Source: Verrucomicrobiia bacterium (lineage in GTDB: Bacteria; Omnitrophota; Omnitrophia; Omnitrophales; Aquincolibacteriaceae). Taken from it: a DNA stretch of 64,000 bases. This document shows, one piece after another, positions 4,345-39,607 of the stretch. Under the pieces are notes generated by a model. It was given only the letters and a program-made list of their open reading frames with translations. It was not told the origin of the DNA and did not search any database. The stretch's first letter is position 1; each line of letters begins with the position of its first letter. Both the position numbers and the translations under genes were made by a program. The stretch spans positions 857 to 64,856 of the forward strand of contig DATJFP010000041.1 in the NCBI GenBank assembly GCA_035495615.1, read 5' to 3'.

Positions 4345-4494
4345 CGCGGCGATTTTATCACAATTGCCGCGGGCATCCTATCTCCCGGTCCCGGATCGGA
4401 CCGGGACTGAGAAAACCGTTTCGGCGTAAAGCCGGAATCGCTGCCGGTCCCCGTTGTCACGGCGGCTCCTAATATGTTATGCTCCCTCACTTCT

Positions 4495-5391: not shown

Positions 5392-6497
5392 TGGGGAAAC
5401 TCGCGCTGGGGCTCATGTCCGGCACCTCCGCAGACGGAGTTTCTGTCGCGGCCGGAAGCTTTGGCGGCGATTTCAAAATTTACGGGTACGAAACCTACGA
5501 TTTTCCTCCCGCTCTCGCGCTTCAAATCAAGCGAGCCCGTTCGCTTAAGATTGACGAGTTCTCGCGGCTGAACGTTTCCCTCGGAAAATTCTTCGGGCGG
5601 TGCGCGCTTTCTTTCATCACGAAAAACAAATTAAGCCGTTCACGGATCGCGGTCATCGGCTCTCACGGACAAACCCTCTACCATGGACCCGCGGACAATC
5701 CCCCTAACACCCTGCAGGCCGGCGAACCGAGCGAAATCGCGGAGATCACCGGCCTTCCCGTGGTCGCGGACTTCCGGCCCCGTGACATCGCGGCAGGCGG
5801 CGAGGGAGCCCCGCTCATTCCTTTCTTCGACCAGTTCTTTTTCGGCAAGGGGCGGCCACGCGCCTTGCAAAACATTGGCGGAATCGGAAACGTTTCGCTT
5901 GTCGGGAAACCGGTACGGCCGCTGGCCTTTGATACGGGGCCGGGCAATTGCCTGATGGATTTGGCAGCCGCAAGATTTTCGCGCGGGAAGAGTTCCTGCG
6001 ATCGAAACGGCATTCTCGCTTCACGCGGGAAAGTGGATTTCAAAGCCGTGAACGAAATGATGCGCCATCCTTTCTTCCGCCGGAAGCCTCCCAAATCCAC
6101 GGGACTGGAACTTTTCAATGAACGTTTCGTCCCCGCGCGCCTGTGGCGCCAGGAGAGAGAAGACTGCCTGGCGACGCTGACGTATTTCACGGCGCATGCG
6201 ATCCGCCAAAGCTATGAGGCATTTCTTCCCCGCGGCGTCGCGGAAGTCATCGTGAGCGGCGGCGGCGCTTTCAACAAGACGCTGATGAAATTTCTCCGAC
6301 AACTCCTCGCGCCCGTACCCGTCCGGTCCATCGCCGACTACGGCATGCACCCGCAGGCCAAAGAACCTCTGGCATTTGCTTTTTTTGCGTGGGAAGCGAT
6401 CCACGGCAGAATCAATCATTTTCCCGCAGGGACGGGAGCTCAAAAAACGCGCGTGCTGGGAAAAATCATTCCGGGAGGACGTGGTGCATCTCATTGA
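5391..6497 (+). CDS. anmK: anhydro-N-acetylmuramic acid kinase AnmK
   Basis: MGKLALGLMSGTSADGVS...IGSHGQTLYH are AnmK N-terminal and ATPase motifs. The ATG overlaps the murQ stop in TGATG, indicating translational coupling. Confidence 0.9.
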   Translation: MGKLALGLMSGTSADGVSVAAGSFGGDFKIYGYETYDFPPALALQIKRARSLKIDEFSRLNVSLGKFFGRCALSFITKNKLSRSRIAVIGSHGQTLYHGPADNPPNTLQAGEPSEIAEITGLPVVADFRPRDIAAGGEGAPLIPFFDQFFFGKGRPRALQNIGGIGNVSLVGKPVRPLAFDTGPGNCLMDLAAARFSRGKSSCDRNGILASRGKVDFKAVNEMMRHPFFRRKPPKSTGLELFNERFVPARLWRQEREDCLATLTYFTAHAIRQSYEAFLPRGVAEVIVSGGGAFNKTLMKFLRQLLAPVPVRSIADYGMHPQAKEPLAFAFFAWEAIHGRINHFPAGTGAQKTRVLGKIIPGGRGASH

Positions 6498-8187
6498 TTG
6501 GCTTGTCATCCTCGTTTATACCGTCATTACTCTGGGGCTGGGCTTTCTTCTAACCCGAAAAGCTTCCAAGGGCATTGAGTCTTATTTTGCTTCGGACCGC
6601 AAACTCGCATGGTGGCTGGCGGGAACCTCCATGGCAGCCACGGCATTTTCTTCGGATACTCCCCTTCTTGTCACGGGTATCGTGAGAAGAAAAGGCATCT
6701 GGGGCAACTGGGAAATATGGGCGCTGGCGATCAGCACCATGTTTTCCGTTTTCTTCTTTTCGCGGCTGTGGAAACGCGCTGGCGTCCTGACCGAAGTCGA
6801 GCTCGTGGAATTACGCTACAGCGGCAAGCCCGCGGCTTTTCTGCGCGGCTTCAAGGCGATTTACTGGGGCATGATTTACAACGCCTTCATCATGGGGGCC
6901 TGGCCCATGACCGGACTCGTCAAAGTGATGCAGGAGACGACGGACTGGTCCAAAGTCACTTCGATCATTTTTTGCATGGCCATCACCATGATCTATTGCC
7001 ATTTTTCCGGCTACTGGGGCGTGGTGGTTACGGACTTTTTTCAGTACATCACGGCCATGGCGGGCGCCATTCTGCTGGCTTTCTATGCGGTCCACGCGGC
7101 CGGCGGCATGCAGGCCATGCTTCATCAATTGAGCCCGGAAAAGCTTATGATCATCCCGCCGGCTTCGGGACATGCGCCTCTAGAATACCTGCAGTCCCCT
7201 TTCGGATGGTTTCTCGCTCTTCTTACGATCCAGTGGTGGGCCTGGAAAAATACGGACGGCGGCGGCATCCTGGTCCAGAGAATCGCCTCCTGCAAAAACG
7301 AGCGCCATGCGGTGCTGGCCACGCTGTGGTTCAACATCGCGCAGTATGCGCTGCGGTCCTGGCCCTGGATCATTACCGCGCTTGCCTCGCTCGTCCTTAT
7401 CCCGGACCTGGCGGACCATGAGCGCGCTTATCCCCGCTTGATCGCCATGCTGCTTCCCACGGGCCTGAAAGGCATGATGATCGCTTCATTCTTTGCCGCC
7501 TTCATGTCGACCATGAGCACGCATCTGAACTGGGGGGCTTCCTATTTCGTGAATGATTTTTACAAGCGTTTCATACGTCCCGAAGCCTCGGAGAAACATC
7601 TGGTGACCGTCGCGCGCCTGGCCCAGATATTTCTCGCCTGCGCGGCCATGGGCGTGGCTTTTTTTACAAGCAGCATTTCCGGCGTTTTCACGTTTGTCCT
7701 GAACCTGAGCGCGGCCATCGGCCCGGTTTATCTTCTGCGGTGGTTTTGGTGGCGGACCAATGCCTGGAGCGAAGTCCTGGCGCTGGCTTCAAGCCTTCCG
7801 GTGATTTTGCTGCGGCCGCACTTTTTCCACGCGCTCGGAGTTCCGGAAAATCTGGCCTTTGATCTCCTCTTCATGATCCTGGGCAGCGCGGCGGTCTGGC
7901 TGCCGGTGACTTTGATGACGGCGCCCGCCCCTGACGATCAGCTGCGGCTCTTTTACGCAAAAGTCCGTCCCCCCGGGTTCTGGTCCCGATTTGCGCAGGA
8001 AACGGAAGCCGCGAGCGAATGGACTGAAGCTCTCAAAGTTTGGGGGATTTCGACGGCCGCGATCCTGCTCGTCACGATCGGGCCCTTGAAGCTGCTGCTC
8101 GGTCAAATACTGAGCGGCGCGCTTTTGACGGGATCCGCCGTAATCTTGTGGATCTACGTCGGAACCAAACTGCAGGAAAAGAAATAA
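6481..8187 (+). CDS. sodium:solute symporter family (SSF) transporter
   Basis: About 13 predicted TM helices and typical SSF composition. GTG start after a GGAGGA RBS. The 5' end of the track ORF (6376-6480) overlaps anmK and was trimmed. Confidence 0.75.
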   Translation: MVHLIDWLVILVYTVITLGLGFLLTRKASKGIESYFASDRKLAWWLAGTSMAATAFSSDTPLLVTGIVRRKGIWGNWEIWALAISTMFSVFFFSRLWKRAGVLTEVELVELRYSGKPAAFLRGFKAIYWGMIYNAFIMGAWPMTGLVKVMQETTDWSKVTSIIFCMAITMIYCHFSGYWGVVVTDFFQYITAMAGAILLAFYAVHAAGGMQAMLHQLSPEKLMIIPPASGHAPLEYLQSPFGWFLALLTIQWWAWKNTDGGGILVQRIASCKNERHAVLATLWFNIAQYALRSWPWIITALASLVLIPDLADHERAYPRLIAMLLPTGLKGMMIASFFAAFMSTMSTHLNWGASYFVNDFYKRFIRPEASEKHLVTVARLAQIFLACAAMGVAFFTSSISGVFTFVLNLSAAIGPVYLLRWFWWRTNAWSEVLALASSLPVILLRPHFFHALGVPENLAFDLLFMILGSAAVWLPVTLMTAPAPDDQLRLFYAKVRPPGFWSRFAQETEAASEWTEALKVWGISTAAILLVTIGPLKLLLGQILSGALLTGSAVILWIYVGTKLQEKK

Positions 8188-8714: not shown

Positions 8715-9311
8715 ATGAAAACGATGCATGCGCGAAACGTCCTCATTCTCATTACCGGGTTACTATTGGCGGGATGCGGCGGCCAGGTAGACCCCGCGGC
8801 ATCGGTGAAAACGCCCAATTCGCTGGAAGCGGCCATGTCGCTTTTAAATCAGGGAAAAACCCTGGAAGCCGTGGGCAACCTTACGGAAATCATCAAAGCG
8901 GATCCGAACAATGCCGAAGCGTTCCGGATGATGGGCGATATCTTTTTCGCGAAAAACGAGATTCAGCGGGCGGAATCGTTCTACATGCGTGCGGTGGAAC
9001 TGAACACGCCGAACGGCGCGGTGTACGACAGCCTCGGGCAGCTCTACATTAAAAAGGGAGACGCGCCGGGCGCGGTGCAGTTTTTTCTCAAGGCCGCCGA
9101 AAAATCTCCGAATCTTCCCGACCCTTACTATCACCTTGGCGTGCTCGCGCTGGCTTCGAAGGAAACCGAGGCCGCCATCAACTTCTTCAAGAAAGCTTTG
9201 GCCGTGGATCCGAACCATCAGCCGACGCTCGTGATGGTGGCGCAATTGGAAGAAGCGGCCAAAAAAGTGGAAGCCGCCGGTGGCCAGCAGCAACAGCCGC
9301 CGCAGCAGTAA
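8715..9311 (+). CDS. TPR-repeat lipoprotein
   Basis: Signal peptide with lipobox LLAGC and several TPR-like 34-mers (AEAFRMMGDIFFAKNE..., YYHLGVLAL...). RBS AAAGGGAA. The C-terminus is Q/P rich. Confidence 0.75.
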   Translation: MKTMHARNVLILITGLLLAGCGGQVDPAASVKTPNSLEAAMSLLNQGKTLEAVGNLTEIIKADPNNAEAFRMMGDIFFAKNEIQRAESFYMRAVELNTPNGAVYDSLGQLYIKKGDAPGAVQFFLKAAEKSPNLPDPYYHLGVLALASKETEAAINFFKKALAVDPNHQPTLVMVAQLEEAAKKVEAAGGQQQQPPQQ

Positions 9312-9314
9312 CCC

Positions 9315-9893
9315 TCAGGAATCGGTCAACTCCGGCAGAAGGATCACTCGCAGAGTCTCGCTATTTTCGTTCCGGAAGAATTTGGTCTCGAATTCCGATT
9401 TGCGCCCCCCCACTTCCACGGGCTCACCCGGCGGCACTTGGTAGGTGGCAGCCAGCCGGCTGACCGCGACAACGCCTTTCCCTTCCTCGGTCTGATAAGA
9501 AATTCCCGGTACGACCTCGATTTGGATCACGGCTCCCTCCACTTTAGGGTGAAGCAGGAGAACCGATTCCACTCCGCTGAGCGGGACGGAGCTGGCGAGA
9601 TAGCCTTCCTTTTTGAGATAACCCTCATACCATTCAGGCTCTGCGGTTTTGGAAAGGGGAAGTTTTATCTCCTCGCCTTCTTTGACCTGGAAGAAAAGCA
9701 TGGCGTCCGGCGGTTGAGGCTTAGAAGACGCGGGCGCGTCCGGAGCGCCGACCGGTTCCATGATTTTGATTTTGGCGACGAGCTGGATTTTTTCGCCGGC
9801 TGCGCGGCAAGGAGAGGAATAGAAAAAGACCGCGCAAAAGACGGCGGCCAGCAGGCCTGCGGAAAAGTATTTTTTTGCCGCATCAAGAGACAT
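9315..9893 (-). CDS. secreted hypothetical protein
   Basis: Start set at MSLDAAKKYFSAGLLAAVFCAVFF, a signal peptide. No recognisable family. Confidence 0.5.
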   Translation of the reverse strand: MSLDAAKKYFSAGLLAAVFCAVFFYSSPCRAAGEKIQLVAKIKIMEPVGAPDAPASSKPQPPDAMLFFQVKEGEEIKLPLSKTAEPEWYEGYLKKEGYLASSVPLSGVESVLLLHPKVEGAVIQIEVVPGISYQTEEGKGVVAVSRLAATYQVPPGEPVEVGGRKSEFETKFFRNENSETLRVILLPELTDS

Positions 9894-9897
9894 GAAT

Positions 9898-10071
9898 CTA
9901 CCGTCCCGACAGCTTGGCAAAACAGCCGCAGGCAATCAGGCCTGTTCCTACGATATAGATGTTGATGGCCTGGAACTCAAAAACCGCCGCCTGGTGCAAG
10001 AACCTGCCGATGACGCTCGCAATGCACACCACGATCCCCAGCACTCCGATAAAATTTCCGATGTGTTTCAT
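9898..10071 (-). CDS. small membrane protein (57 aa), not in the ORF track
   Basis: I translated the minus strand manually: MKHIGNFIGVLGIVVCIASVIGRFLHQAAVFEFQAINIYIVGTGLIACGCFAKLSGR. It has two hydrophobic helices and sits in a gap between annotated genes. Confidence 0.4.
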   Translation of the reverse strand: MKHIGNFIGVLGIVVCIASVIGRFLHQAAVFEFQAINIYIVGTGLIACGCFAKLSGR

Positions 10072-10099
10072 GGAAGCCTTCCTTTCGAGAAAGGGTTGT

Positions 10100-10276
10100 T
10101 TAGGCCTTTTTGACCGTCATGCGGGCCTGGCTTTTTTCCCGTAGGCGGCGTTCATGTTCGACGGCGGCGCGGAGATCCAGGGCTTCCGCCAGAGGATCGT
10201 AATTCCGGTCGTAGGCCACCGTCTCTTCGGCATTGTCTTTTTCATGAATGGGCTGGATGCTGTTTTTCGTTTTCAC
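10100..10276 (-). CDS. small hydrophilic protein (58 aa), not in the ORF track
   Basis: GTG start preceded by a GGGAGG RBS and overlapping the stop of the upstream MBL-fold gene (GTGA), consistent with translational coupling. Product: VKTKNSIQPIHEKDNAEETVAYDRNYDPLAEALDLRAAVEHERRLREKSQARMTVKKA. Confidence 0.4.
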   Translation of the reverse strand: MKTKNSIQPIHEKDNAEETVAYDRNYDPLAEALDLRAAVEHERRLREKSQARMTVKKA

Positions 10277-10917
10277 GTTTCCTCCCGTTTGCTTTTTAAG
10301 CCTTGGACTGCCGCGAGCTTCTCCTTCAAAAAAAATTGCTCCAAAATGTCATGCGCCTGCACGAGGACCGGCTCGCCGTCCCCGACCAGAATGATCTCAA
10401 AAAAAAGCGCCCGGAGCCGTTCCAATCCGAGCCGCGCTTTGGCGGCATCCTTGTATTTTGCCGCCGGAAGCAGATTGAGCCGCCCCGCGGGCACGCCGAT
10501 AAGCGCATCGCCCAGAATCAAAAGGCCGCGGTTCCGCGCGTAAAAAGCACATTCGCCCGGCGATTTCTGGTCCGGCAAATGCAGCACTTCCAGGCCGCAG
10601 GCCAGCCTTTCGCCTTCCCTGAAAACGTGATCCGGCGCTTCCTTCAGAAACGGTTTGTCCTTTTCGTGGATCGCGACAGGTATTTTCCAATCGCGCCGCA
10701 AGTCATAGGCCGTGCGCTCATGATCTTTGTTGGTCAGATAAATGGCTTGGAAAGGCCCCAGCGCTTCCACCTGCCCGCGCTCCTCGTCCGACATCACCGC
10801 GGGATCGACGAGGACTCTCTCCTGGCCCGCGGCCAACACGGTTCCGTTGAACGCGTAGCCTTTTTCGGGAGACCTCCACGACCACGTCCAGACGTCTTTG
10901 ACGATTTGCCTGAGCAC
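10273..10917 (-). CDS. MBL-fold metallo-hydrolase-like protein (degenerate His motif)
   Basis: About 210 aa with a beta-lactamase-fold-like pattern (LTNKDHERT..., ILGDALIG...HLPD). The canonical HxHxDH is not intact, so the family assignment is tentative. Confidence 0.45.
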   Translation of the reverse strand: MLRQIVKDVWTWSWRSPEKGYAFNGTVLAAGQERVLVDPAVMSDEERGQVEALGPFQAIYLTNKDHERTAYDLRRDWKIPVAIHEKDKPFLKEAPDHVFREGERLACGLEVLHLPDQKSPGECAFYARNRGLLILGDALIGVPAGRLNLLPAAKYKDAAKARLGLERLRALFFEIILVGDGEPVLVQAHDILEQFFLKEKLAAVQGLKSKREET

Positions 10918-10932
10918 GGCAAGCTCCGGTTC

Positions 10933-11406
10933 TCAGCCCGCGGCGGCCGGGACAAGGGGCGCGAAAACATGACTGCCATTTTCCAGTTCCCAGCGCCTTT
11001 TGCCTTTGTGTTCGAGATAAAGGGACCTTAGGGAAGCGATGAGACCGCCATTTTCCTCGCGGATCCAGGGAAACGTGCTGCCCGACGATCTGAGATTTTT
11101 CTTCTTGTCGCAGGGATAGCCCAGGAGGATCGTGTCCCCTTCGTTCAAATCCAGGCCTTCGGGCTTGCGGATGATTTTTTTTACCTGATACTTTGCCTCG
11201 CAGCGGCAGGCAAGATGCGCCAGGGATTTGGCGCCGCAAAAAGATTCGCTTCCGGATTTCAAATAAGTGAGCTCGGCCTCGACATCCACACGCTTGACAT
11301 AGCCCTGGACCCAGGAATCGTAAACCGCCGAAGGCACCGCAGCCTGCGCGCCGGCAGGAAGAACGAGAAGGATGGAGAGCATCGCAAGAAAACCACGGCG
11401 TTTCAT
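10933..11406 (-). CDS. secreted hypothetical protein (157 aa)
   Basis: N-terminal signal peptide MKRRGFLAMLSILLVLPAGAQA and several Cys. No recognisable family. Confidence 0.5.
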   Translation of the reverse strand: MKRRGFLAMLSILLVLPAGAQAAVPSAVYDSWVQGYVKRVDVEAELTYLKSGSESFCGAKSLAHLACRCEAKYQVKKIIRKPEGLDLNEGDTILLGYPCDKKKNLRSSGSTFPWIREENGGLIASLRSLYLEHKGKRRWELENGSHVFAPLVPAAAG

Positions 11407-11442
11407 TTTTCCTCCCTGGGATGGGCCGATCGATCCGCGGGT

Positions 11443-12753
11443 TTACTGCCCGGGCATCGACAATTCGGCATAAGGGCTGTCGTCCGTATTTGGATCCGGC
11501 GCTTTTTCCACCTTTTCCTTAGGCGGGGCGGCAGGCCGGCTTTTTTGCTTCATGATTTTTTCGATCCGCTTGCGCGTCGAAGGATGCTGAAAGGACATTT
11601 TGGCTTTGATCAAGAACGGAGAAAAGTCGTAATACTCCTCGTATAAATAAGGCTCCAGGTAAGAAACAAAAACCGCCCTTTCCACCCGCTCGTCCTCGTT
11701 TTGCGCGGCCGCGGTGAATTTATCCACGGCACGCTGGAGAAAATCCGCTTTCCAGCGCGGAAAAAAATCGCTTTCGACGACCGAGGGTTCGTGGATGAAG
11801 ACTTGCGTCTGGCTCGATTTCGGAGCGTCCTTGTAAGCGATCAGCAGCGTGAAGATGGTCCGGAATTTTCCGGAAGGCAGCGCGGCAGTCGCCACGTAAT
11901 ATTCGATTTTCGCGAGCGGAACACGGCGTCCCGCGGCATCGATGTCGCTCAAACCAAACGAGGTGCCCTGGATGCGCTCGGGAACCGGGAATTCGCGGCC
12001 CTCTTCGGATTCGCTGACGATGTTCAACTCTTCGTCCCTGCGGTAATCTTCCTGGCGCACGGTCATTGCCGTTTTGGAAGATCCGCGGGCCTTGCGCGCG
12101 GAAGGCGCGGACACGGCGGCGGATTGTTTTGCCCTGTCTTCCGCGGCATCTTTATCGATCATGGCCTTGATGACCGCCGGCAGCTCCCGCAGGGTTTTTT
12201 CCACGTAACGTGACGAAAATTCAACGAGTGCCTGCGCGAAATCGCCGCCGTACTGCGCTTCGAGAGCGAAAAACTGGCCCCGGACCAGCGACGAGAAACG
12301 GTCGCGGAAATTGCGCACGAAAACCGGATCAAAGGCGAAATCGCCGCTTCCGACCGTGGTCGACATCCTCAGACTTTTCGTGCCGCCGTCCGGCATGCGC
12401 AGGGTAATAGATACGCGCACTTCGTAAAATCCCTGTTTGAACGGCTTGAGCACGACCTCCGAATCGAAATGGCCGAGGTTCAAGGCCGTACCGTCGGGAT
12501 TGAGCCCGCTTTTGATCTTGGCGGAGATCTGGGAAGACCCGGTGGTGACGATTTCCCGGGCTTTCAAAAGCGGCGCGCCGTCCGGGACAAGAAGGCCGGC
12601 CTGCGGCAGGGCGCGGACGGACATTTGGTATTCCGAAGGGCTGTTGTGGATGTCGATGGCAGTCAGCCTCGAGTCTTCGGCATGCGCGGAAACCGCAGCC
12701 GAAAAAATCAAAATGGCAGCCATCCAGATTTTTTTTTGAGCCATTGTTTTCAT
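11443..12753 (-). CDS. secreted hypothetical protein (436 aa)
   Basis: Signal peptide MKTMAQKKIWMAAILIFSAAVSAHA. No recognisable domain by eye. Confidence 0.55.
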   Translation of the reverse strand: MKTMAQKKIWMAAILIFSAAVSAHAEDSRLTAIDIHNSPSEYQMSVRALPQAGLLVPDGAPLLKAREIVTTGSSQISAKIKSGLNPDGTALNLGHFDSEVVLKPFKQGFYEVRVSITLRMPDGGTKSLRMSTTVGSGDFAFDPVFVRNFRDRFSSLVRGQFFALEAQYGGDFAQALVEFSSRYVEKTLRELPAVIKAMIDKDAAEDRAKQSAAVSAPSARKARGSSKTAMTVRQEDYRRDEELNIVSESEEGREFPVPERIQGTSFGLSDIDAAGRRVPLAKIEYYVATAALPSGKFRTIFTLLIAYKDAPKSSQTQVFIHEPSVVESDFFPRWKADFLQRAVDKFTAAAQNEDERVERAVFVSYLEPYLYEEYYDFSPFLIKAKMSFQHPSTRKRIEKIMKQKSRPAAPPKEKVEKAPDPNTDDSPYAELSMPGQ

Positions 12754-12839: not shown

Positions 12840-12866
12840 TTGCTCCGAATCGTTTTCAGGTATAAT
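12840..12866 (+). promoter_or_regulatory. candidate promoter for the exbB operon (TTGCTC-15 nt-TATAAT)
   Basis: A perfect -10 TATAAT at 12861-12866 lies about 34 nt upstream of the exbB ATG. The -35 is weak. Confidence 0.35.
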
Positions 12867-12899
12867 ACGGGCGCCTTTCGAAAAAAAGAGGGAGAACCC

Positions 12900-13604
12900 A
12901 TGAAGATCTTGTCTTACCTTACTCTCTTCGGCATTTTTTTGGAAAAAAACGCCTGGGCTGCGGAAGCTCAGAGCTCCCATTCGGGCATGACGCTCTGGCA
13001 GACCCTCCAGTCGGGCGGCGTGGTGATGGTCATTCTCGGGATTCTGTCCCTGATCATCCTTTCCCTCATGATTTTCCTGCTTCTTTACCTGGATCCGCTC
13101 AAGCTCGTGCCTTCGGAGCTCACGCACAAATGCCTCCAATACGTGACCCAGAAAAAATACGATCTCGCGCGCAAGGCCATTTCCGGCAACGAGAGCCTGG
13201 TCAAAAACATCATCCTGGCCGGCCTGGACCGGGTGAACCTCGGCGAAGAGGCGGTGCATGAAACCGTGGAGCTGACCGCCCGCAAAGAAGTAACGACCTT
13301 GTGGAGCTTCCTCAACTACATTTCCGACATCGGGCAGGTCGCGCCCATGCTGGGACTGCTCGGCAACGTGCTGGGCATGATCCGCGCTTTCAATAACGTG
13401 GCCTTCGAAACCGGCGTCGTCAAGCCCATCGCGCTTGCCGGCGGCGTGGCCGAAGCCATGATCACGACCGCGGGCGGACTTTCCATCGGCATTCTGGCCA
13501 TGATCATCTACCCTATCATCCGCGCGCGCGTGCAGAACATCACGAACCTTCTCGAAACCGAAACCTCCGTCATCCTCAAGGCCTTCAGCCATGGCACGGC
13601 TTGA
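12900..13604 (+). CDS. exbB: MotA/TolQ/ExbB proton-channel family protein
   Basis: Three TM helices with a conserved C-terminal region GGVAEAMITTAGGLSIGILAMI typical of ExbB/TolQ. RBS AGAGGGAG precedes the ATG at 12900. Confidence 0.85.
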   Translation: MKILSYLTLFGIFLEKNAWAAEAQSSHSGMTLWQTLQSGGVVMVILGILSLIILSLMIFLLLYLDPLKLVPSELTHKCLQYVTQKKYDLARKAISGNESLVKNIILAGLDRVNLGEEAVHETVELTARKEVTTLWSFLNYISDIGQVAPMLGLLGNVLGMIRAFNNVAFETGVVKPIALAGGVAEAMITTAGGLSIGILAMIIYPIIRARVQNITNLLETETSVILKAFSHGTA

Positions 13605-14019
13605 TCCCCCGGAATACAGCAAACGCCCCCCGACGATCCAGATCGCCCCGCTGGTCGATATCGCCTTCATCACGCTCATTTTCTTCATGACCATGTCGGT
13701 CTTCAACCAGCTCGAGAACGAGCTGTCGATCAATGTCCCCAAAGCCAAAGAGTCGAAAGAAATGGAGCGCACCCCGGGCGAGATTGTGATCAACGTCGAC
13801 CGCGAAGGTGCCGTCGTCGTGAACCAGAAGAAATTCGACCCCGCGGAACTGGAGCAGATGCTCAAACGCCTTTCCTCGCTGTACCCCAATCAGCCCGTCA
13901 TCATCCGGGCCGATGCCAAGACCACCCACGAGCATGTCATCCGCGTCCTCGACGCCTGCGCCGGCGCCGGCATCTGGAACATTGCTTTTGCGACTTCAAA
14001 AGAAGAAAAAACTTCTTAA
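13591..14019 (+). CDS. exbD: ExbD/TolR family biopolymer transport protein
   Basis: IAPLVDIAFITLIFFM is a single TM helix with the conserved Asp, followed by a periplasmic domain. It overlaps exbB by 14 nt. Confidence 0.85.
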   Translation: MARLDPPEYSKRPPTIQIAPLVDIAFITLIFFMTMSVFNQLENELSINVPKAKESKEMERTPGEIVINVDREGAVVVNQKKFDPAELEQMLKRLSSLYPNQPVIIRADAKTTHEHVIRVLDACAGAGIWNIAFATSKEEKTS

Positions 14020-14029
14020 AGGAAAAAAC

Positions 14030-16381
14030 ATGAGAATCCGCATTTCCCTTCTCTGTGGCCTGTTGTGTGCCTTGTCTCTGTCCATGCTTCCCGCGGTTCG
14101 GGCCGAAGAGCCGGCCGCGGCTCCGGCACCGGCGGCCTCCGGCATCGATGACCGGTTCGATTTCGCCGATGGCCTTTACGCCCGCAACATGTACGACATG
14201 GCTGCCACCGAATATCAGAACCTTATAAAGGAAGCGCCGGATCATCCCCGCACGCGCGATGCCTCTTACAGGCTGGCCGAGTCGTATTTCTTCCTGAAGC
14301 AATACGACAAGGCCATGGCCGGATACCAGGCTTGGCTTGCGAAATTTCCGTCTGAGGCCCAGGCTGACAGCGCGAAGCTCCGCATCGCGGAAAGCCTTTA
14401 CTATCAAGGTAAAACTGACGAAGCCCTGGCCCAATTCGGAACCATGGCCGGAAGCCCGAAGCCGCTGGTCAAAAGCGCCGCCCATTATTATCTCGGTAAA
14501 ATCCTGCTGGAAACCGGACGCGAGGCGGAAGCCAAGCCGCATTTCGAGGCGCTTCGCGAACCCGGGCCGGACAATGGCTTTTCCGAAATCGCCGTGTACC
14601 ACCTGGGCCAGATCGCCTTGAAAGACAAGGATTACAAAACCGCGGCGGACGAATTCAAAAAACTCGGATCGAGCGAAAAGGCGGATTTAAAAGAGCTGGC
14701 CGCCTTCGGCCTCGGTCAGGTCTCGTTTCTCTCCGGCGATTACGAACAGGCCCGTCAGGCTTTTCTGCAGACGTTCCAGCTTTCCAAAAAGCCCGAAGTC
14801 CGCCAGGAAGCGCTTTTGAATGCCGCGAAATCGCTTTTCGAACTCAAGCAGTATTCCGGCATCCTCGATCTGATGAAGCCCGAAAATCTGCAGGGACTTC
14901 CGAACGCGGCTCCCCTGAAAATGATGGCGGCCACGGCGCGTTTCGAATTGGGGCAATTCAATGAAGCGCTCGCGCTTTATGACGAAATCCTGGTCCTCCC
15001 GGGAATTACGGCCCAGGAAAAAGAAGCCGCGGAACTGGGAAAGGTCGAGGCGATCCTCCGCAGCGGCGATGCGGCCAAGGCGCTGGCCGCGGCCCAGGCT
15101 ATGCCGCAGGAGCGTTCCTTTTTCAAAGACCGCTGGACGTACCTCATGGCAGAAGTCATGAAGCAGGCCGGAAAATCCGACGAGGCGCTGAAGCTTCTCG
15201 ATTCCCTGCCCCAGGACACGGATCCGGAATTCCGTTCCCGCGCCGAACTCAACCGCGCGCATATTCTCCTGGATTCGGGGGACTTGAAAGGCGCGCGCGC
15301 GCAGATGGACCAATTCCTGAAGGATCATCCGGATCATCCCCTGGCCAAGCAGACGCTGATGAACCGCATCAGCCTGGACATCAAGCTGGGCGAGCTCCAG
15401 GAGGCGACCAAGAGCTCCGACGCCTTTCTCCAGAAATTCGGCGAGACCCCTGAAGGCAAGCAGGTGCGGTACCAGCTGGCGTCCCTTTATCTCTCGCTCA
15501 AAGATTATCCCGGCGCGTTTTCCGCATATGAAAAGTACCTCCAGCTTTATCCGGACGACGAAAAAAAGCACGAGGCACTTTTCTACATGGGCTACGCGAA
15601 GCAGCTCGCGGGCGACATTCAAAAGGCCGTGGAGTATTACACCCAGGTGCAGCAGGGAAAATTGCGGGAGGATCTGTACGCGGGCGCTTTAAAAAATCTC
15701 GCTTACTGTTACGTACGCCTCGAAAAATGGGACGCCGCGGCCGCCGCTTACCGCCAGCTGTTGAAATCGGGTTCCGGCAGCGACGTGGGACCGGACATTT
15801 ATCTGTGGCTGGCGGAATATTACCGCTCGCGTCAGGATGGCCCGGCGCTCACTGAAGTCATGGAGTCCTTCAAGTCCTCGCCCAAGGCCGCGGAAAATGC
15901 CGCGGAGGCGGAATACTTTTCGGGCGAGGCCGCGCGTCTTACGAACCAGCCGGACAAGGCGCTCGCGCATTATGATGCTTGCCTTCAGAAAGAATCCCCG
16001 GTGAAGGCCAAGGCGCTTCTCGGAAAAGCCACAGTCATGCTGGACCGGAATGATCCCGCGGCCGCGGTCCCGATTCTAGAAGACGCCATCCGGCAGTCCA
16101 AAGACGACCAGGAAATGAATCTCGAGGCGCGCATGAAGCTGGCTTCGGTTTATAAAATCCAGAGCAACTTCCTCGAGGCGGCCAAGGCTTATCTGGCTGT
16201 CGCCATTCTTTACGATGATCCCGCCTCCACGCCTGACGCCCTGTGGAACGCCGGGGAAAATTTCGAGAAGGCGGAGCATTCCGATGAAGCGCGCAAGGCC
16301 TATCAGGAACTCACGCAGCGTTATCCCAGCCATCCGCTTGCCGCTCAGGCCCAGAGCAAATTGGGAACCTCGCCGTCATGA
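14030..16381 (+). CDS. large secreted TPR-repeat protein (~784 aa)
   Basis: Signal peptide MRIRISLLCGLLCALSLSMLPAVRA followed by TPR-like repeats throughout. The start was set from track ORF 13913 to the internal ATG preceded by AAAGGAAAAAAC. Confidence 0.8.
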   Translation: MRIRISLLCGLLCALSLSMLPAVRAEEPAAAPAPAASGIDDRFDFADGLYARNMYDMAATEYQNLIKEAPDHPRTRDASYRLAESYFFLKQYDKAMAGYQAWLAKFPSEAQADSAKLRIAESLYYQGKTDEALAQFGTMAGSPKPLVKSAAHYYLGKILLETGREAEAKPHFEALREPGPDNGFSEIAVYHLGQIALKDKDYKTAADEFKKLGSSEKADLKELAAFGLGQVSFLSGDYEQARQAFLQTFQLSKKPEVRQEALLNAAKSLFELKQYSGILDLMKPENLQGLPNAAPLKMMAATARFELGQFNEALALYDEILVLPGITAQEKEAAELGKVEAILRSGDAAKALAAAQAMPQERSFFKDRWTYLMAEVMKQAGKSDEALKLLDSLPQDTDPEFRSRAELNRAHILLDSGDLKGARAQMDQFLKDHPDHPLAKQTLMNRISLDIKLGELQEATKSSDAFLQKFGETPEGKQVRYQLASLYLSLKDYPGAFSAYEKYLQLYPDDEKKHEALFYMGYAKQLAGDIQKAVEYYTQVQQGKLREDLYAGALKNLAYCYVRLEKWDAAAAAYRQLLKSGSGSDVGPDIYLWLAEYYRSRQDGPALTEVMESFKSSPKAAENAAEAEYFSGEAARLTNQPDKALAHYDACLQKESPVKAKALLGKATVMLDRNDPAAAVPILEDAIRQSKDDQEMNLEARMKLASVYKIQSNFLEAAKAYLAVAILYDDPASTPDALWNAGENFEKAEHSDEARKAYQELTQRYPSHPLAAQAQSKLGTSPS

Positions 16382-18066
16382 AAGAAAGAAACATTTTCTT
16401 CCTGTCCGCCGGCGTTTCGCTTTTGGCCCACCTGGCCATCCTCTGCGCCACCTTCTTTATATGGATTCCCGGCGTCACGGGCTCGGCCATGAATGCCGCG
16501 ACCGTCCCTCAAGCCCGCCAGATTTTTCACGTCAAAAGCATCGCGCCTGAAAAGGTCTCCGCTACGGCAGGAAGCGTCCAGGCCGGACGCGTGAGGAAGA
16601 TCAAATTCGAAAATCCCGCGATGGCCGCGGCCGGCAAGGCTGCCGCGGAAAGTTCTTTTTCGCAGGCGCCGCCGCAGATCAAGGCCCCGGACATCCTGGG
16701 AAACGTGCTGCCGGAAAAAATGTCGATGGACACGTCCGCCCCCCTGCCCCAGCCCGAGGCGGCGCCCGAAGTCCTCAAGGAAAAAATCCAGCTCGCGACG
16801 CGGCAGGTCGACCGGAATCAGGCGCTGGGAAAGGCGGAAGTGTTCGTGTCCTCGACAAATCTCACGGAAAGCGCGGGTGCCATGGAGCTGCCGAAAGAAT
16901 TCCGCGAACAGATGCCGGCCTTTACGCCGGAAAAATTTCTGCAGGGAACCCTGACGCCGTCCAACGGCGGCGCGGACTCGGGCGTAGCTTCCGGCATCAT
17001 GAACGGCGAGTTCGGCTTCCAGCCGGACGAACAGAACGAATCGCTCGATGCCTTCCTCAATGTGAGCTTTTTGACTTACCGCGATCCCGCGGACGGGCAG
17101 GGTTATTACCAGATCTCCATTTATTCCTCACCGCAGGCCAAGGATCTGGAAGTTCTGCCCAAGGAAATCATCTTCCTGGTCGACGCGTCACTCAGCATTC
17201 AAAGGCGCCGGCTCAACGGCTTCCGAGAAGGAATCAAGTACGCCCTGCAGCATTTGAATCCCGAAGACAAATTCAACATCTTCGTTTTCAAAAACGAAAT
17301 CATCCCTTTTGCCGAAACGTCCGTCAGCACACGCACGGATTCAATCCTCCGCGCCATGGATTTCATGGACCGTATCGAGCCCAGCAACCGCACGGACATT
17401 TATACCGCGTTCTTTCAGACCATCCAGAAGCCGGCGGCGCTGGAGCCTTCTTACATTGTCCTGCTCAGCGACGGACGTCCGAGCGAAGGCGAGTCGTCGA
17501 CTGGGAAATTGATCTCGGAAATCACGCGCAAGAATGACCAGAAGCGCCCCATTTTCGCGTTCAGCGGAGGCGCGCGCGTCAACCGGTTTCTCCTGGACTT
17601 CCTCGCTTACCCCAACCGCGGATGGTCGGAGTTCGCGCCGTATGATTCCCAGATCCAGGAAAAATTTTCCGCCTTCTACGACAAAATCCAGAATCCCATC
17701 CTCGCAAATTTACGGTACCAGCTCACGCCTCTGGACGAAAAGCAGGCCTATCCCAAAAATCTTCCGGACTTTTACCGAGATACATTGTTCACCGTGTACG
17801 GAACCTTTAAAGACGAGACGAAATTTTCGATTCGGATCCTCGGGGAAGAGGGCGGGAACACCAAAGAATTCATTTTCTCGCACGATCTCAGGCAAGCGCA
17901 GCAGGGAACCTCGGAGATCGCCAAACACTGGGCCTTCAACAAGGTCTATTATTTGATCAGCCAGATGACCTTGCACGGCCCGACGCCGGAACAGAAGGAG
18001 GAGATCCAGAAACTGGTCAAAAAATTCGGACTGGATATCCCCTACAACGTGGACGAACTTATTTAA
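16378..18066 (+). CDS. membrane-anchored protein with a TonB/TolA-like N-terminal anchor (SxxxH), Pro/Ala-rich linker and a C-terminal vWA domain
   Basis: The N-terminal TM helix FFLSAGVSLLAHLAILCATFF contains S-x3-H as in TonB/TolA anchors. The linker is APLPQPEAAPE-rich. The vWA MIDAS motif is IIFLVDASLSIQ with ...VLLSDGRPSEG. The ATG overlaps the TPR gene stop in ATGA. Confidence 0.7.
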   Translation: MKERNIFFLSAGVSLLAHLAILCATFFIWIPGVTGSAMNAATVPQARQIFHVKSIAPEKVSATAGSVQAGRVRKIKFENPAMAAAGKAAAESSFSQAPPQIKAPDILGNVLPEKMSMDTSAPLPQPEAAPEVLKEKIQLATRQVDRNQALGKAEVFVSSTNLTESAGAMELPKEFREQMPAFTPEKFLQGTLTPSNGGADSGVASGIMNGEFGFQPDEQNESLDAFLNVSFLTYRDPADGQGYYQISIYSSPQAKDLEVLPKEIIFLVDASLSIQRRRLNGFREGIKYALQHLNPEDKFNIFVFKNEIIPFAETSVSTRTDSILRAMDFMDRIEPSNRTDIYTAFFQTIQKPAALEPSYIVLLSDGRPSEGESSTGKLISEITRKNDQKRPIFAFSGGARVNRFLLDFLAYPNRGWSEFAPYDSQIQEKFSAFYDKIQNPILANLRYQLTPLDEKQAYPKNLPDFYRDTLFTVYGTFKDETKFSIRILGEEGGNTKEFIFSHDLRQAQQGTSEIAKHWAFNKVYYLISQMTLHGPTPEQKEEIQKLVKKFGLDIPYNVDELI

Positions 18067-18132: not shown

Positions 18133-19167
18133 TTATTTATCTGGGCGATCATCAAAATAGCTTAAAATAACGCCCTCCAGCCACAAGTCCTGCCTCCAAG
18201 GCCATTTTCCACTCACAAATCCTAAATGACCTCCGCGGGAAACCAGGCAAAGCCGCAGGCTGGCATTGCTCTCGATCGCTTTCAAAGGCAGGTATCGTCC
18301 TTCGAAAAATGGATCGTCCGCAGCATGAATCAAAAGCGTGGGAACGCGAATCGAGTCCAGATAGCGGGCGGAGCTGGACTCCGTCCAATAATGCAGCGCG
18401 CTGTGGAAATGATTCAAGCGCGCGGTCACTTCTTCATCGAATTCGCGAAAAGTCGTGCATTTCAGGACTTTGGCAATATCGATGAGGCCCGGGAAATCTT
18501 TCTCCTTCTCCAGGGACTTGGCCTTGAGCGAACTCAAAAGGCTGCGCGTATAAACGCGGCGGTTGAAACCCTGGTCCATCAATTCCACGGATTTGACGAG
18601 GTCGTATGGTACGGAAACCGCGGCGGCTTTTTTAATTTGGCCGGCGGCGGAGGCTCCCTGCTCCCCCAGCCACTTCAAAACAATGTTGCCGCCGATGGAA
18701 TAGCCGGCGAGATAATAATTTTCCCAGGCGGTCTTTCGCAGGAGATGCTGGACCACCCAGTCGAGATCGTCAGTTTTTCCCGAGTGATACGTCGTGGGCA
18801 GCCGGTTGGGATTTTTTTCAGCGCCCCAATCGTTGAAAAGCCGGCGTCCTTTTCTTTTGACCGCGCTGCATCCCCGGAAATTGACTGCGGCGGCATGCCA
18901 GCCCCTCTTGTGAATCTCACTCAAGAGGCTCCGGACATACGGCGCTTCCGAAGAACCTTCAAGGCCGTGCAGCACGATGACTCCGGGCTTGTCACGCGCG
19001 CCCTCCAGGATTTCGATATCCAGAAAATCACCGTCCGGAGTTTCCAGGCGTTCGAGCGTGAGCTCAAGCGGCGGGGCGGGACGGAAAAAACGGGCGAAGA
19101 TCGTCTGCGCATGCGCGCCGGGGCACCACCATGCAGGCCGGAAAGGACGGGGCTCGAAGCCGGGCAT
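18133..19167 (-). CDS. alpha/beta hydrolase, YheT/ABHD-type
   Basis: PDGDFLDIEI...GVIVLHGLEGSSEAPY...GYSIGGNI matches the YheT-family esterase pattern. Confidence 0.8.
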   Translation of the reverse strand: MPGFEPRPFRPAWWCPGAHAQTIFARFFRPAPPLELTLERLETPDGDFLDIEILEGARDKPGVIVLHGLEGSSEAPYVRSLLSEIHKRGWHAAAVNFRGCSAVKRKGRRLFNDWGAEKNPNRLPTTYHSGKTDDLDWVVQHLLRKTAWENYYLAGYSIGGNIVLKWLGEQGASAAGQIKKAAAVSVPYDLVKSVELMDQGFNRRVYTRSLLSSLKAKSLEKEKDFPGLIDIAKVLKCTTFREFDEEVTARLNHFHSALHYWTESSSARYLDSIRVPTLLIHAADDPFFEGRYLPLKAIESNASLRLCLVSRGGHLGFVSGKWPWRQDLWLEGVILSYFDDRPDK

Positions 19168-19169
19168 TC

Positions 19170-20066
19170 TTAGAGAGGGGCGGAAGTTTCCGCGGCTTTG
19201 GGAGCGGGCGCGGACTCGATGGTGGACGCGTCCGCGGGTTTTGTTTCTACCGGCGGAACTCCAGGCACGGGCGCGGCGGCCGCGGGGGATGAAGGAGTCT
19301 CGGAAACATCGTAGGAATAATTCTGTTCGAATTCCAGTTTGCCTTCGTGGTCGTATTTTTTGCGGTTGACCCGGTTGCCATTGTCGTAGATGTCGATGTA
19401 CTGGATCTCGCCGTCCTCGTAATACGTGATGGCCGGGCCCTGCTTTTTCCCGTCTTTGATCTGCCAGCGCGTCTTGACCGCGCCATTGATATAATACGTT
19501 TCAACCTGCCCATTCTGGGTCCGGGCCAGCATCATTTCGGAATATTCTTTGCGCACGATGACAGGCATGTCGCGAAACGTGACGATGTCAAGCTTGGCTC
19601 CGTTGTCGCCGTCGCGGATGTAAACATCTTCCACGCGCGAGACAAGATCCTCGTATTCCGAAGGACTCAACGAAAGCGGTTTCAGCGCGCTGCGGACATT
19701 GAAATAGAACTGCTGGACCAGCTCGTTCTGTCTTCTCTCGATCTGCTTTTCCTTGACGTAGTCTCCGATGCTTTCGGTCACGGTCTTGGCAAAAGAGCCG
19801 GCCTTTTCCGCGGTTTTGATCAGCGAAAGAGCCAGCTTTTCATTAGCCGTGCTGTCATCGTAGGACAGAGGTGCTGAAGAACCCGCCTGCTGGGCCGTCG
19901 TAGCCGCAGCCGGGGAATCAAGGGCGGAATATTTCGAAGCCAGCGGATTTTGCTGCTGCGCATCGGGCTGGACCGCTTCGGCAACGCCTCGGGGCGGATG
20001 GCAAAACGCGATGAGGAAGACGACAAGAATCAGGAATTCATATTTTCTGCCGAAAGAGGCGCGCAT
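19170..20066 (-). CDS. secreted MORN-repeat (YwqK-like) protein
   Basis: Signal peptide plus repeated YY.NG...G..Y.DG. MORN-like units (TYYINGAVKTRWQIKDGKKQGPAITYYEDGEIQYIDIYDNG). The C-terminus is Pro/Ala rich. Confidence 0.6.
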   Translation of the reverse strand: MRASFGRKYEFLILVVFLIAFCHPPRGVAEAVQPDAQQQNPLASKYSALDSPAAATTAQQAGSSAPLSYDDSTANEKLALSLIKTAEKAGSFAKTVTESIGDYVKEKQIERRQNELVQQFYFNVRSALKPLSLSPSEYEDLVSRVEDVYIRDGDNGAKLDIVTFRDMPVIVRKEYSEMMLARTQNGQVETYYINGAVKTRWQIKDGKKQGPAITYYEDGEIQYIDIYDNGNRVNRKKYDHEGKLEFEQNYSYDVSETPSSPAAAAPVPGVPPVETKPADASTIESAPAPKAAETSAPL

Positions 20067-20157
20067 GGGAGCTCCAGAAAAAAAGTCGATAGAACACGTT
20101 TATTATCGGCAAAAAACAGGTAAGATTAACGCCGGTCCAGGAGGATTTTACAGCCCC

Positions 20158-20991
20158 ATGAAAAAAACAGTCCGCGTTTTCGCGGCGGCCTTTCTCTCTC
20201 TATCCATAATTGTGGCCATGCTTTGGCTTGGCCGCAGGCCTCTCCTGGAAACCCTGATCAATGCCTCGATGGCGGATTTTTTCAAAGGCTCGGTGCGCCT
20301 TTCTTCGGCGGAATTCGACTCGCATCTGCGCCTTTCCTTGAAAGGCATCAGCGGAAACTTCCAGGCCAAGTCCGGCATCGTGGCTTTGCAGTCGCGAGAA
20401 ATCAAGACTCTGGATTCCCTGCTGTACTTGCTCGCGGCAAAACCGGTCCGGTTTGTCATGGACGGCCTGCGGCCGCTGGCTTCGATGCAGGAAGGCATAC
20501 GGGCACGCGGCAGCTATCGCGCCGGCATCCACTGGCGCTTCGAGATGGAGGCGGACATTCTGGGCGTAGGGCTGCAAGACCTCGTGGCCCTCAGTCCGGA
20601 AAATCTCGCGGAGTCTACCGGAACGCTGCAGGGCACCCTGCATTTTGCGACCGACGCCCGGCAGGATCCCGCTTTCGGCCTTATCCTGCGGGCGCCGGAA
20701 CCCGGAGGCCGCGTCCACGCGCATTTTTTTGACATGCTGCTGCCCTACCTGCCGCAGGCCGCGGTGCAGGCCAAGGTCAAGGAGATCAGCGCGGGGGCGA
20801 CGCGCCTTGTATCGTACCGGGATGCGGACTTCCACATGAACCTCGAAACTCCCGACCACATGAAACTTTTTCTGCATATTCTCGTCCCTGAGTATAATAT
20901 GGACTTGAATATCAATATGCAGGTGCACGTCGATAAGAAGAACTCATTTTTTCAAATCGCCCAGATGCTCGGGCTTATCCAGGTTTCGTAA
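20158..20991 (+). CDS. membrane-anchored hypothetical protein; possible short YdbH-like protein by position
   Basis: N-terminal signal-anchor MKKTVRVFAAAFLSLSIIVAML. It lies immediately upstream of ynbE-ydbL, as ydbH does in E. coli. The family assignment is positional only. Confidence 0.4.
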   Translation: MKKTVRVFAAAFLSLSIIVAMLWLGRRPLLETLINASMADFFKGSVRLSSAEFDSHLRLSLKGISGNFQAKSGIVALQSREIKTLDSLLYLLAAKPVRFVMDGLRPLASMQEGIRARGSYRAGIHWRFEMEADILGVGLQDLVALSPENLAESTGTLQGTLHFATDARQDPAFGLILRAPEPGGRVHAHFFDMLLPYLPQAAVQAKVKEISAGATRLVSYRDADFHMNLETPDHMKLFLHILVPEYNMDLNINMQVHVDKKNSFFQIAQMLGLIQVS

Positions 20992-25908: not shown

Positions 25909-26035
25909 GATTTACGCCCGGCCGCGATTTGTATAGAATAGCACAGCTTTCCGGACTTGGAAGAAAAACAAGCCCCCCTGTTTGGCATCCGCGGTCAAGC
26001 TCCGAAGCACATTGGGATCTTCCCAAGGAAATCCT

Positions 26036-39535: not shown

Positions 39536-39607
39536 CTTTTCCCGCGGTTTAGATTAGGGCCGGCTTTGTCGAAATATCATCGGAACGCTGTCAACGCGCA
39601 CTCATCC

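Follow-up and report, generated by a model that had tools for sequence, protein, structure and literature searches.

What does a motor of the Ton/Tol type drive when the protein encoded in the place of TonB or TolA ends in a domain of von Willebrand factor A (vWA) type? This question is raised by an operon in a 64,000-nucleotide stretch of DNA from a member of the Omnitrophota (assembly GCA_035495615.1, contig DATJFP010000041.1, positions 857 to 64,856 of the forward strand; the whole stretch is hereafter the window), in which four plus-strand genes, tightly packed or overlapping, encode an ExbB/TolQ-like protein, an ExbD/TolR-like protein, a tetratricopeptide repeat (TPR) protein and a vWA protein, the last of which we refer to as gene 4 (Table 1). 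We find that this operon probably encodes a force-transduction machine of the Ton/Tol type, driven by the proton motive force and with a metal-dependent, integrin-like binding output. The four-part composition, with a secreted all-TPR protein in third place and an anchored vWA protein in fourth, had been proposed in an initial annotation of the DNA, and is borne out by Pfam and NCBIfam matches for each protein; the tight coupling of the genes that it pointed out can be read directly from the sequence, where exbB and exbD overlap by 14 nucleotides and the TPR and vWA genes overlap in ATGA.

The C-terminal part of gene 4 is where the operon departs from the Ton and Tol systems. Pfam places VWA_3, VWA_2 and VWA at residues 263-419, finds no match to TonB_C, TonB_2 or TolA in this protein, and all five residues of the metal ion-dependent adhesion site (MIDAS), D269, S271, S273, T339 and D365, are invariant in the homologue alignment, so that the proposal of a vWA domain with an intact DASLS motif in this position holds. 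Among the NCBIfam models, the protein matched the VIT-vWA model named 'marine sortase target', below cut-off and only in the part that contains vWA. In an AlphaFold2 model with a mean predicted local distance difference test score (pLDDT) of 78.8, and of more than 90 over most of the head, the vWA fold (residues 263-437) is flanked by two beta-strands on its N-terminal side and four on its C-terminal side, and two helices follow. This arrangement, a MIDAS vWA domain set in a beta-sandwich with C-terminal helices over residues ~226-555, is that of the inter-alpha-trypsin-inhibitor heavy chains ITIH1 (PDB 6fpy) and ITIH4 (PDB 9c4f): ITIH1 6fpy is the best PDB fold match (Foldseek E=1.1e-23, 353 aligned columns), and comparison of the family profile with PDB sequences retrieved ITIH4 with E=3.3e-37 and ITIH1 with E=5.4e-32, over profile positions 166/244-544. 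VIT itself (PF08487/PF13757) has no match in the gene 4 protein or its full-length homologues, and is present in the more distant relatives P0060-P0083. Since sequence and fold both match ITIH and the MIDAS is invariant, the head is an ITIH/VIT-vWA module without VIT, which has gained a TonB-like anchor and linker; whereas ITIH and the bacterial VIT-vWA proteins begin with VIT, the window protein has the anchor and linker instead, is tethered to the inner membrane and is linked to a motor. We also observed a relative of 926 amino acids (aa), P0072, in which a signal peptide and VIT-vWA are followed by a C-terminal TonB_C (PF03544), the reverse combination of ITIH and Ton parts and a hint that ITIH-like modules and Ton components have come together repeatedly in evolution.

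At the other end of the protein, we aligned the anchor across 47 gene 4 homologues, whose identity with the window protein is 30-56%. Within the first 235 aa, only Ser14 and His18 are invariant (47 of 47), and they lie in a helix predicted by AlphaFold2 at residues 2-27 with a pLDDT of 83-96, which contains a hydrophobic stretch of ~25 residues. When the sample is widened to 85 related loci, 72 have SxxxH, seven have AxxxH and six have an N-terminus that is truncated or unreadable, so the His of the anchor is kept in all 79 readable loci. Because Ser14 and His18 alone are invariant across such diverged N-termini, the resemblance to the anchors of TonB and TolA, on which the initial annotation had relied, is not coincidental. 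The seven loci with Ala at His-4 (L027, L032, L035, L036, L040, L042 and L063) make up a sub-clade whose linker is so diverged that tblastn matches mostly begin at around residues 113-180 (from residue 13 in L040), and which keeps the order of the cassette wherever upstream DNA is present. In E. coli, cryo-electron microscopy shows contacts with the motor for the equivalents of Ser14 and His18, placing Ser16 and His20 of TonB in contact with Ser34 and Trp38 of ExbB, and Ser18 and His22 of TolA in contact with Ser28 and Trp32 of TolQ, the Ser-His pair being the structurally conserved half of a longer SHLS motif (PMC12215075).

Between anchor and head, the linker has a pLDDT below 50 across most of residues 37-168 and of 81-84 for residues 170-190, where the AlphaFold2 model shows a conserved PxxFxExMxAFTP motif (residues 172-184) packed onto the head. 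The earlier description of this linker as rich in Pro and Ala is right for Ala, which makes up 15% of residues 33-225, but not for Pro, which makes up just 8%. The median distance from the His of the anchor to the MIDAS is 238 aa among the homologues. About 30 residues past His18, a short motif stands out from disordered linker that is otherwise unconserved, with F50 in 42 of 47 homologues, V or I at position 52 in 40 and K53 in 25. At a comparable position, TonB and TolA have a 'motor box' beta-strand that binds ExbD or TolR (PMC12204202), and by analogy we infer that residues 48-55 are a good candidate for a strand of this kind, one that would bind ExbD; the AlphaFold2 monomer has no strand predicted there.

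The two motor subunits belong to the families of the E. coli Ton and Tol motors, MotA_ExbB (Pfam E=1.3e-24) and ExbD (E=3.5e-28), and share with them the transmembrane (TM) Asp and the second of the two pore Thr. The TM Asp of the ExbD partner, which had been described as conserved, is Asp23 (codon 13657-13659) and is kept in 64 of 64 orthologues. In the ExbB-like protein, Ser50 of TM1 is invariant in the 62 cassette orthologues, and we take it to correspond, in an M-x6-S register, to Ser34 of ExbB and Ser28 of TolQ in E. coli, with the TM1 register set by eye. The pore ring of the E. coli motors is formed by T148/T181 in ExbB and by T145/T178 in TolQ, whereas the window protein has Asn156/Thr190; Thr190 is invariant (62/62 orthologues). 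Each cassette, in the window and in the related loci, has a single ExbD/TolR gene, and the ExbB-like subunit presumably forms a pentameric stator ring, by analogy with its E. coli counterparts. Scored against NCBIfam, both subunits are slightly nearer to the TolQ/TolR models than to ExbB/ExbD, with 53.7 bits for TolQ (cut-off 221) and 42 bits for ExbB in the one case, both far below the equivalog cut-offs, and 67.1 bits for TolR (cut-off 127) and 39.2 bits for ExbD in the other, again below the cut-offs.

The third protein is secreted and composed of TPRs throughout, as had been proposed: its signal peptide, MRIRISLLCGLLCALSLSMLPAVRA, is of the signal peptidase I type without a lipobox, and TPR_16, TPR_6, TPR_2 and related Pfam families cover the whole of the gene. 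A simple pattern search identified signal peptides in the orthologues as well, with a lipobox in only two of 56. Despite an identity of only 22-43%, the length of the protein is uniform, at 745-851 aa and mostly 780-810 aa (53 loci), and its best-conserved motifs are found at its two ends, DFAxGLxxRGMY, which follows directly on the signal peptide, and VAxLYDD close to the C-terminus (LYDD being residues 727-730). Because the range of lengths is so narrow at such low identity, and the end motifs are conserved, these sequences suggest that the protein may act as a ruler-like scaffold, and we presume that it is a periplasmic scaffold or adaptor. When compared with the YbgF/CpoB model TIGR02795, it scored 176.7 bits over six stretches and passes the cut-off of 90.1 only because it holds six such units.

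These scores raise the possibility that the cassette is the Omnitrophota version of Tol, in which a TolQR-like motor, a very large TPR protein resembling CpoB and a TolA-like protein whose domain III has given way to a vWA domain would serve outer membrane (OM) stabilisation and division constriction. We regard this reading as possible though somewhat unlikely. The better scores of the motor subunits against TolQ and TolR and the above-cut-off match of the TPR protein argue for it; a CpoB-type TPR protein is encoded in the same operon in tol-pal as well, and CpoB, which is about one third of the size of the window protein, binds TolA in E. coli. Moreover, the cassette is found throughout the phylum in housekeeping contexts, as would be expected of a core envelope function. 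On the other hand, the TolQ and TolR scores fall well short of the equivalog cut-offs, TolB and Pal genes were not found in or beside the cassette at loci with gene calls and precomputed Pfam matches, there is no recurrent flanking family, and Hinthialibacteria OLB16, the sole Candidatus Omnitrophica entry in the supplement of Williams-Jones et al., has a canonical Tol-Pal locus with tolA, tolB and pal (PMC12204202). We could thus reject the operon as a canonical Tol-Pal or Ton system, given the below-cut-off NCBIfam scores and the lack of tolB, pal and TolA domain III in the cassette, in its flanks at loci with gene calls and precomputed Pfam matches, and in the scanned open reading frames (ORFs) of the window. 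Like TonB and TolA, gene 4 has Ser-x3-His in an N-terminal TM helix, which a disordered linker connects to a globular head at the C-terminus. The head, however, is a vWA/MIDAS domain and not TonB_C or TolA domain III, and the linked genes do not include a TonB-dependent transporter, TolB or Pal. The idea of an Omnitrophota version of Tol concerns the cellular role, and is compatible with the mechanism that we propose.

We then asked how widely the four genes occur together. A homologue search of 5.8 billion proteins returned ~57 full-length gene 4 homologues (530-590 aa), followed by much weaker VIT-vWA proteins, and all of the full-length homologues with a named source come from Candidatus Omnitrophica or Omnitrophota. 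The family is large: with HMMER, an exhaustive search of 1.84 billion cluster representatives found at least 150 members at E<1e-89, most of them 540-610 aa long, the shorter ones looking like fragments. When GTDB species were scanned with one genome each, relatives were found in 128 species, from which 80 loci were kept; nearly all of these are labelled Omnitrophota, and some third-party annotation assemblies are labelled 'uncultured Planctomycetia'. When the four window proteins were searched with tblastn over 85 related loci, the order ExbB-ExbD-TPR-vWA on one strand was found in 66, and in 18 of the 19 others the contig stops short of the missing genes. The vWA gene thus regularly takes the position of the transducer, as a check of the neighbourhood was meant to establish, since it comes after ExbB-ExbD-TPR in essentially all loci whose upstream DNA is long enough. 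The overlap between the TPR stop and the vWA start is 4 nucleotides in 28 loci and 1-44 nucleotides in most others. The remaining locus, L084, was considered as a true case of a vWA gene without the cassette, with 8 kb of upstream DNA, and was rejected because its contig is chimeric, joining a low-GC dnaA-dnaN-gyrB segment to a truncated high-GC vWA fragment. This contig is labelled Deltaproteobacteria, and we observed that its gyrB ORF (5185-8049; the junction is near 8040) encodes 954 aa and has a large intein-like insertion.

The flanks, compared at 82 loci, vary between lineages: a comparison of flanking families found none in more than 10 of the 82, and those families that do recur are limited to ~7-11 loci each. 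The recognisable ones are a glycogen phosphorylase, a deaminase-like protein, a glycosyltransferase-like protein and a Gly-zipper protein, and a type II secretion system ATPase is within reach in only seven loci; all of these look like ordinary housekeeping neighbours and not like partners. Because the flanks differ everywhere, the functional unit is the four genes alone. This linkage also bears on whether the vWA and TPR proteins could be a static periplasmic complex, either Bat-like or a simple anchored or secreted vWA protein, with the ExbBD pair serving an unlinked TonB and the helix of gene 4 a mere anchor or a cleaved signal peptide. Membrane proteins with vWA and TPR domains do co-occur in Bat operons, where membrane-anchored BatA/BatB are encoded with BatC/BatE, the sequence GSA-M after the helix can be read as a signal-peptidase site, and two distant relatives, P0059 and P0061, do not lie beside motor genes. 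A plain anchor or signal peptide, however, gives no reason for a Ser-x3-His that is invariant in 47 diverged sequences, and the hydrophobic stretch of ~25 residues, in a predicted helix of residues 2-27, speaks against this reading too, as does the linkage to ExbBD in essentially all complete loci. Furthermore, Bat operons lack ExbBD and have genes for MoxR and DUF58, and a Bat aerotolerance operon was rejected because the cassettes have no MoxR or DUF58, no BatA or BatB match was obtained among the NCBIfam models, and the BatC_Lepto model scored the TPR protein at 62 bits with a cut-off of 175. We therefore consider a static complex highly improbable. The suspicion, raised with the initial annotation, that the locus might simply be a diverged Bat or Tol-Pal operon is thus put aside by its NCBIfam and Pfam scores and by its gene content. 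A defence system with a MotAB-like motor (Zorya) was rejected as well, PADLOC giving no match for the ExbB, ExbD or vWA proteins and only a generic match for the TPR protein.

The reading of the operon as a Ton/Tol-type machine has to be weighed against several observations that speak against it. Window ExbB deviates at functionally important positions, with Asn156 at the first pore position, where 61 of 62 orthologues have Thr, and Leu199 in place of the TM3 Pro that is found in 49 of 62. The changes in TM2 and TM3 are four in all at near-invariant positions (Table 1) and may reflect changes coupled to one another, a relaxation of constraint or an error in the sequence; at the position of Glu185, E. 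coli also has Glu. Residue 54 of the ExbB-like protein (Ser50+4) is V, L or T, so that TM1 has no Trp at the place from which, in E. coli, a Trp contacts the His of TonB and TolA. Beyond the Ser-His pair, gene 4 does not follow the SHLS motif, whose Leu and second Ser stand at His+7 and His+11: Leu is found at His+4 in 32 of 47 homologues, and Ser at His+7 in 27 of 47. The Leu and second Ser are poorly conserved in TonB too (PMC12215075). Moreover, P0059 (L087, 1042-2802) and P0061 (L088, 763-2481), which are 26-28% identical, keep SxxxH and lie directly downstream of rho, and the L088 copy upstream of trigger factor, and their short contigs have neither ExbBD nor TPR genes; physical linkage is therefore not obligatory, nor is it for many tonB genes. 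The MIDAS is an intact DxSxS in P0059 and reads DVSES in P0061, and a further relative, P0081, has a TPR gene upstream and a degenerate MIDAS. At the same time, vWA transducers, both those described here and those already published, rest on sequence and structure prediction.

The published ones are the 'vWA force transducers' that Williams-Jones et al. (Mol Biol Evol 2025, PMC12204202) proposed in silico beside tolQR-like and TPR genes in bacteria of the Planctomycetota-Verrucomicrobiota-Chlamydiota (PVC) group. They combine an SHLS TM helix, which AlphaFold3 puts where TonB and TolA bind, with a C-terminal vWA fold, the disordered linker in between holding a motor box, and their function was stated to be unknown. 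The predicted place of this helix lends independent support to the docking that we propose for gene 4. Omnitrophota are not named in the main text (PMC12204202), and we found no paper in the literature that links Omnitrophota with vWA/ExbBD systems. The initial annotation knew of no characterised system with this composition, which stands insofar as none has been characterised experimentally, but the lack of precedent was overstated because vWA transducers had already been proposed computationally. The prototype from Tichowtungia aerotolerans (Kiritimatiellota) has, like the window protein, a TM helix, a linker and a vWA fold, and is encoded beside tolQ-like, tolR-like and TPR genes. It differs in having no Pfam VWA match and DANKL at the MIDAS position, whereas the vWA domain of the window protein is of ITIH type and its MIDAS is intact; in having two heterologous ExbD/TolR genes and two transducers, whereas the window cassette has one of each; and in its gene order, which is not the motor-TPR-vWA order of the window. 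Compared with the Tichowtungia sequence, which was transcribed from a supplement table and may have a few wrong residues, window gene 4 gave no significant BLASTP match and an hhalign probability of 11.7%. The Omnitrophota cassette thus belongs to the same architectural class as the published vWA transducers and is a distinct, possibly convergent family, because of its ITIH-type, MIDAS-intact head, its single ExbD and transducer, its motor-TPR-transducer order and the lack of detectable similarity.

Another machine with matching parts is the Agl-Glt system of Myxococcus xanthus, which, like the window, combines a TolQR-type motor, TonB-like proteins, periplasmic TPRs and a MIDAS vWA output (PMC9946355, PMC11761067). 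In Myxococcus the vWA protein, CglB, is a separate OM lipoprotein in a machinery of at least 17 proteins, whereas in the window the vWA domain is fused to the anchor and there are four genes. One could accordingly imagine that the cassette is a device for adhesion, surface motility or host attachment like Agl-Glt, with the vWA domain fused directly to a TonB-like anchor. The matching parts and the role of CglB (PMC9946355) would favour such a device, gliding has been suggested as a possible role of vWA transducers by Williams-Jones et al. (PMC12204202), and Omnitrophota have been described as host-dependent or episymbiotic (bioRxiv 10.64898/2026.06.07.730766). We consider it decidedly unlikely nonetheless, given that the vWA domain is tethered to the inner membrane by ~200 disordered residues, long enough to reach the OM but not obviously the cell surface, that no Glt-like OM beta-barrel or other Glt gene is linked to the cassette, that the GltE and GltC models match the TPR protein weakly, with 50 and 17 bits for cut-offs of 225 and 450, and that no flanking genes are conserved. 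Between a Tol-like role in the envelope or in division and an adhesion like that of Agl-Glt and CglB, the data do not decide; our best guess, by analogy with Tol-Pal and with Agl-Glt-CglB, is that the machine pulls or tethers an OM-associated component.

For the Ton/Tol-type machine, which is our preferred reading, the sequences show the domains, the conserved docking and MIDAS residues, the linkage of the four genes throughout the phylum and their translational coupling; we infer that the four products form a complex through which force is transmitted to a ligand of the MIDAS. The ExbB-like and ExbD-like proteins would be its inner-membrane stator, presumably of 5:2 stoichiometry like ExbBD and TolQR, with protons passing by way of Asp23 of ExbD. 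The TM helix of gene 4 would dock on the outside of the ExbB ring by Ser14 and His18, as in TonB and TolA, and the conserved strand about 30 residues beyond His18 probably binds the periplasmic domain of ExbD. The motor would then pull on the disordered linker of ~200 residues, which would carry the vWA head across the periplasm, and the head may bind its target through a bond between a Mg2+ ion in the MIDAS and a carboxylate, and not through the beta-strand addition of TonB_C and TolA domain III. The co-translated TPR protein would act here as a periplasmic scaffold or adaptor that is most likely bound by the linker motifs or holds or provides the ligand of the MIDAS, a role that we suggest because CpoB binds TolA in E. 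coli and TPR domains commonly bind peptides. Integrin beta subunits have a vWA-type domain inserted in a beta-sandwich, as ITIH does, and we speculate that a pull on the beta-sandwich could regulate the affinity of the MIDAS. A bolder and, in our judgement, unlikely extension is that of an 'integrin with a motor', in which the pull of the 5:2 stator on the beta-sandwich, which has the topology of the integrin beta-I/hybrid pair and of ITIH, would switch the MIDAS between low and high affinity or load a catch bond, the TPR protein would present an acidic ligand (DFAxGL, LYDD), and the whole would be a phylum-wide engine of the envelope or of host attachment in ultra-small, host-dependent Omnitrophota, having arisen independently of the MIDAS-less transducers of PVC bacteria.

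Table 1. Coordinates, in window positions, of the operon, of the parts of the gene 4 protein and of the deviating residues of window ExbB.
Feature	Position	Strand	Description
exbB-like gene	12900-13604	+	234 aa; ATG 12900, ribosome-binding site GAGGGAG 5 nt upstream
exbD-like gene	13591-14019	+	142 aa; 14-nt overlap with exbB
TPR gene	14030-16381	+	783 aa; ATG 10 nt after exbD stop
Gene 4 (vWA transducer)	16378-18066	+	562 aa; start overlaps TPR stop in ATGA
Upstream signals	12861-12894	+	TATAAT 12861-12866; ribosome-binding site GAGGGAG 12888-12894; read from sequence
Gene 4, TM anchor	16381-16458	+	residues 2-27; Ser14 16417-16419, His18 16429-16431; VSLLAH
Gene 4, linker	16459-17052	+	residues 28-225; predicted disordered, periplasm-spanning
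Gene 4, candidate motor box	16519-16542	+	residues 48-55, QIFHVKSI; family K-[ML]-F-x-[VI]-K-x-[VI]
Gene 4, globular head	17053-18042	+	residues 226-555; ITIH-like; MIDAS DASLS 17182-17196
Window ExbB N156	13365-13367	+	Thr in 61/62 orthologues (pore ring)
Window ExbB E185	13452-13454	+	Lys in 61/62 orthologues
Window ExbB G197	13488-13490	+	Ala in 61/62 orthologues
Window ExbB L199	13494-13496	+	TM3 Pro in 49/62 orthologues

The ATG given in Table 1 is the most plausible start of exbB, the TTG at 12840 being the start of the ORF in a mechanical sense only. The TATAAT upstream of it can be no more than guessed to be the promoter of the operon, because a scan for consensus promoters called no plus-strand site at 12861-12866; a terminator scan gave nothing convincing on the plus strand. 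As for the neighbours of the cassette, the divergent minus-strand operon at 9.3-12.8 kb had been suggested to encode its substrates or partners, but this suggestion is not supported, and the operon was rejected as a conserved partner: the window proteins at 8715-12753 and at 18133-20991 have no homologue in the other 85 loci, bar one generic TPR match, and no flanking family is conserved. In the minus-strand region (9315-12753) there are proteins of 206, 157 and 436 aa without a Pfam or NCBIfam match, the latter two with N-termini that resemble signal peptides, and among them a metallo-beta-lactamase-fold gene (10273-10917); the three proteins appear to be lineage-specific unknowns.

Further away in the window, a cluster at 2806-8187 with a GH3 NagZ-like protein, a SIS-domain (MurQ-like) protein, AnmK and a sodium:solute symporter is likely to serve peptidoglycan recycling, and beyond it are a lipid A acyltransferase, a porin O/P and a sulfate-type ABC transporter, so that the context is that of an ordinary diderm chromosome. 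On the other side of the cassette, a plus-strand ORF of 1184 aa without a Pfam match (25982-29536) is followed by an Exo_endo_phos protein (29576-31195). A DUF6901 gene is found 21 kb downstream of the cassette in the window (39566-40318) and ~1 kb upstream of it in two related loci (L002, 4679-5434; L003, 4681-5436), a proximity that concerns three loci only and is probably coincidental synteny.

Ton and Tol are so far the two well-understood routes by which diderm bacteria bring energy from the inner to the outer membrane, and both end in a small domain that works by beta-strand addition. It was not until 2025 that a third class, of transducers with a vWA output, was proposed on the basis of structure prediction, and the cassette in the window represents a separate, apparently convergent lineage of this class, with traits that make it useful for further work: a MIDAS-intact head that can be detected from sequence, a compact module of four genes, conservation throughout the phylum and invariant docking residues. 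His18 of the anchor, Asp23 of ExbD and Asp269 of the MIDAS are handles that could be mutated to study how a 5:2 motor may energise metal-dependent, adhesion-type bonds. For the Omnitrophota themselves, the cassette may help to explain how these bacteria maintain their envelope or attach to their hosts.

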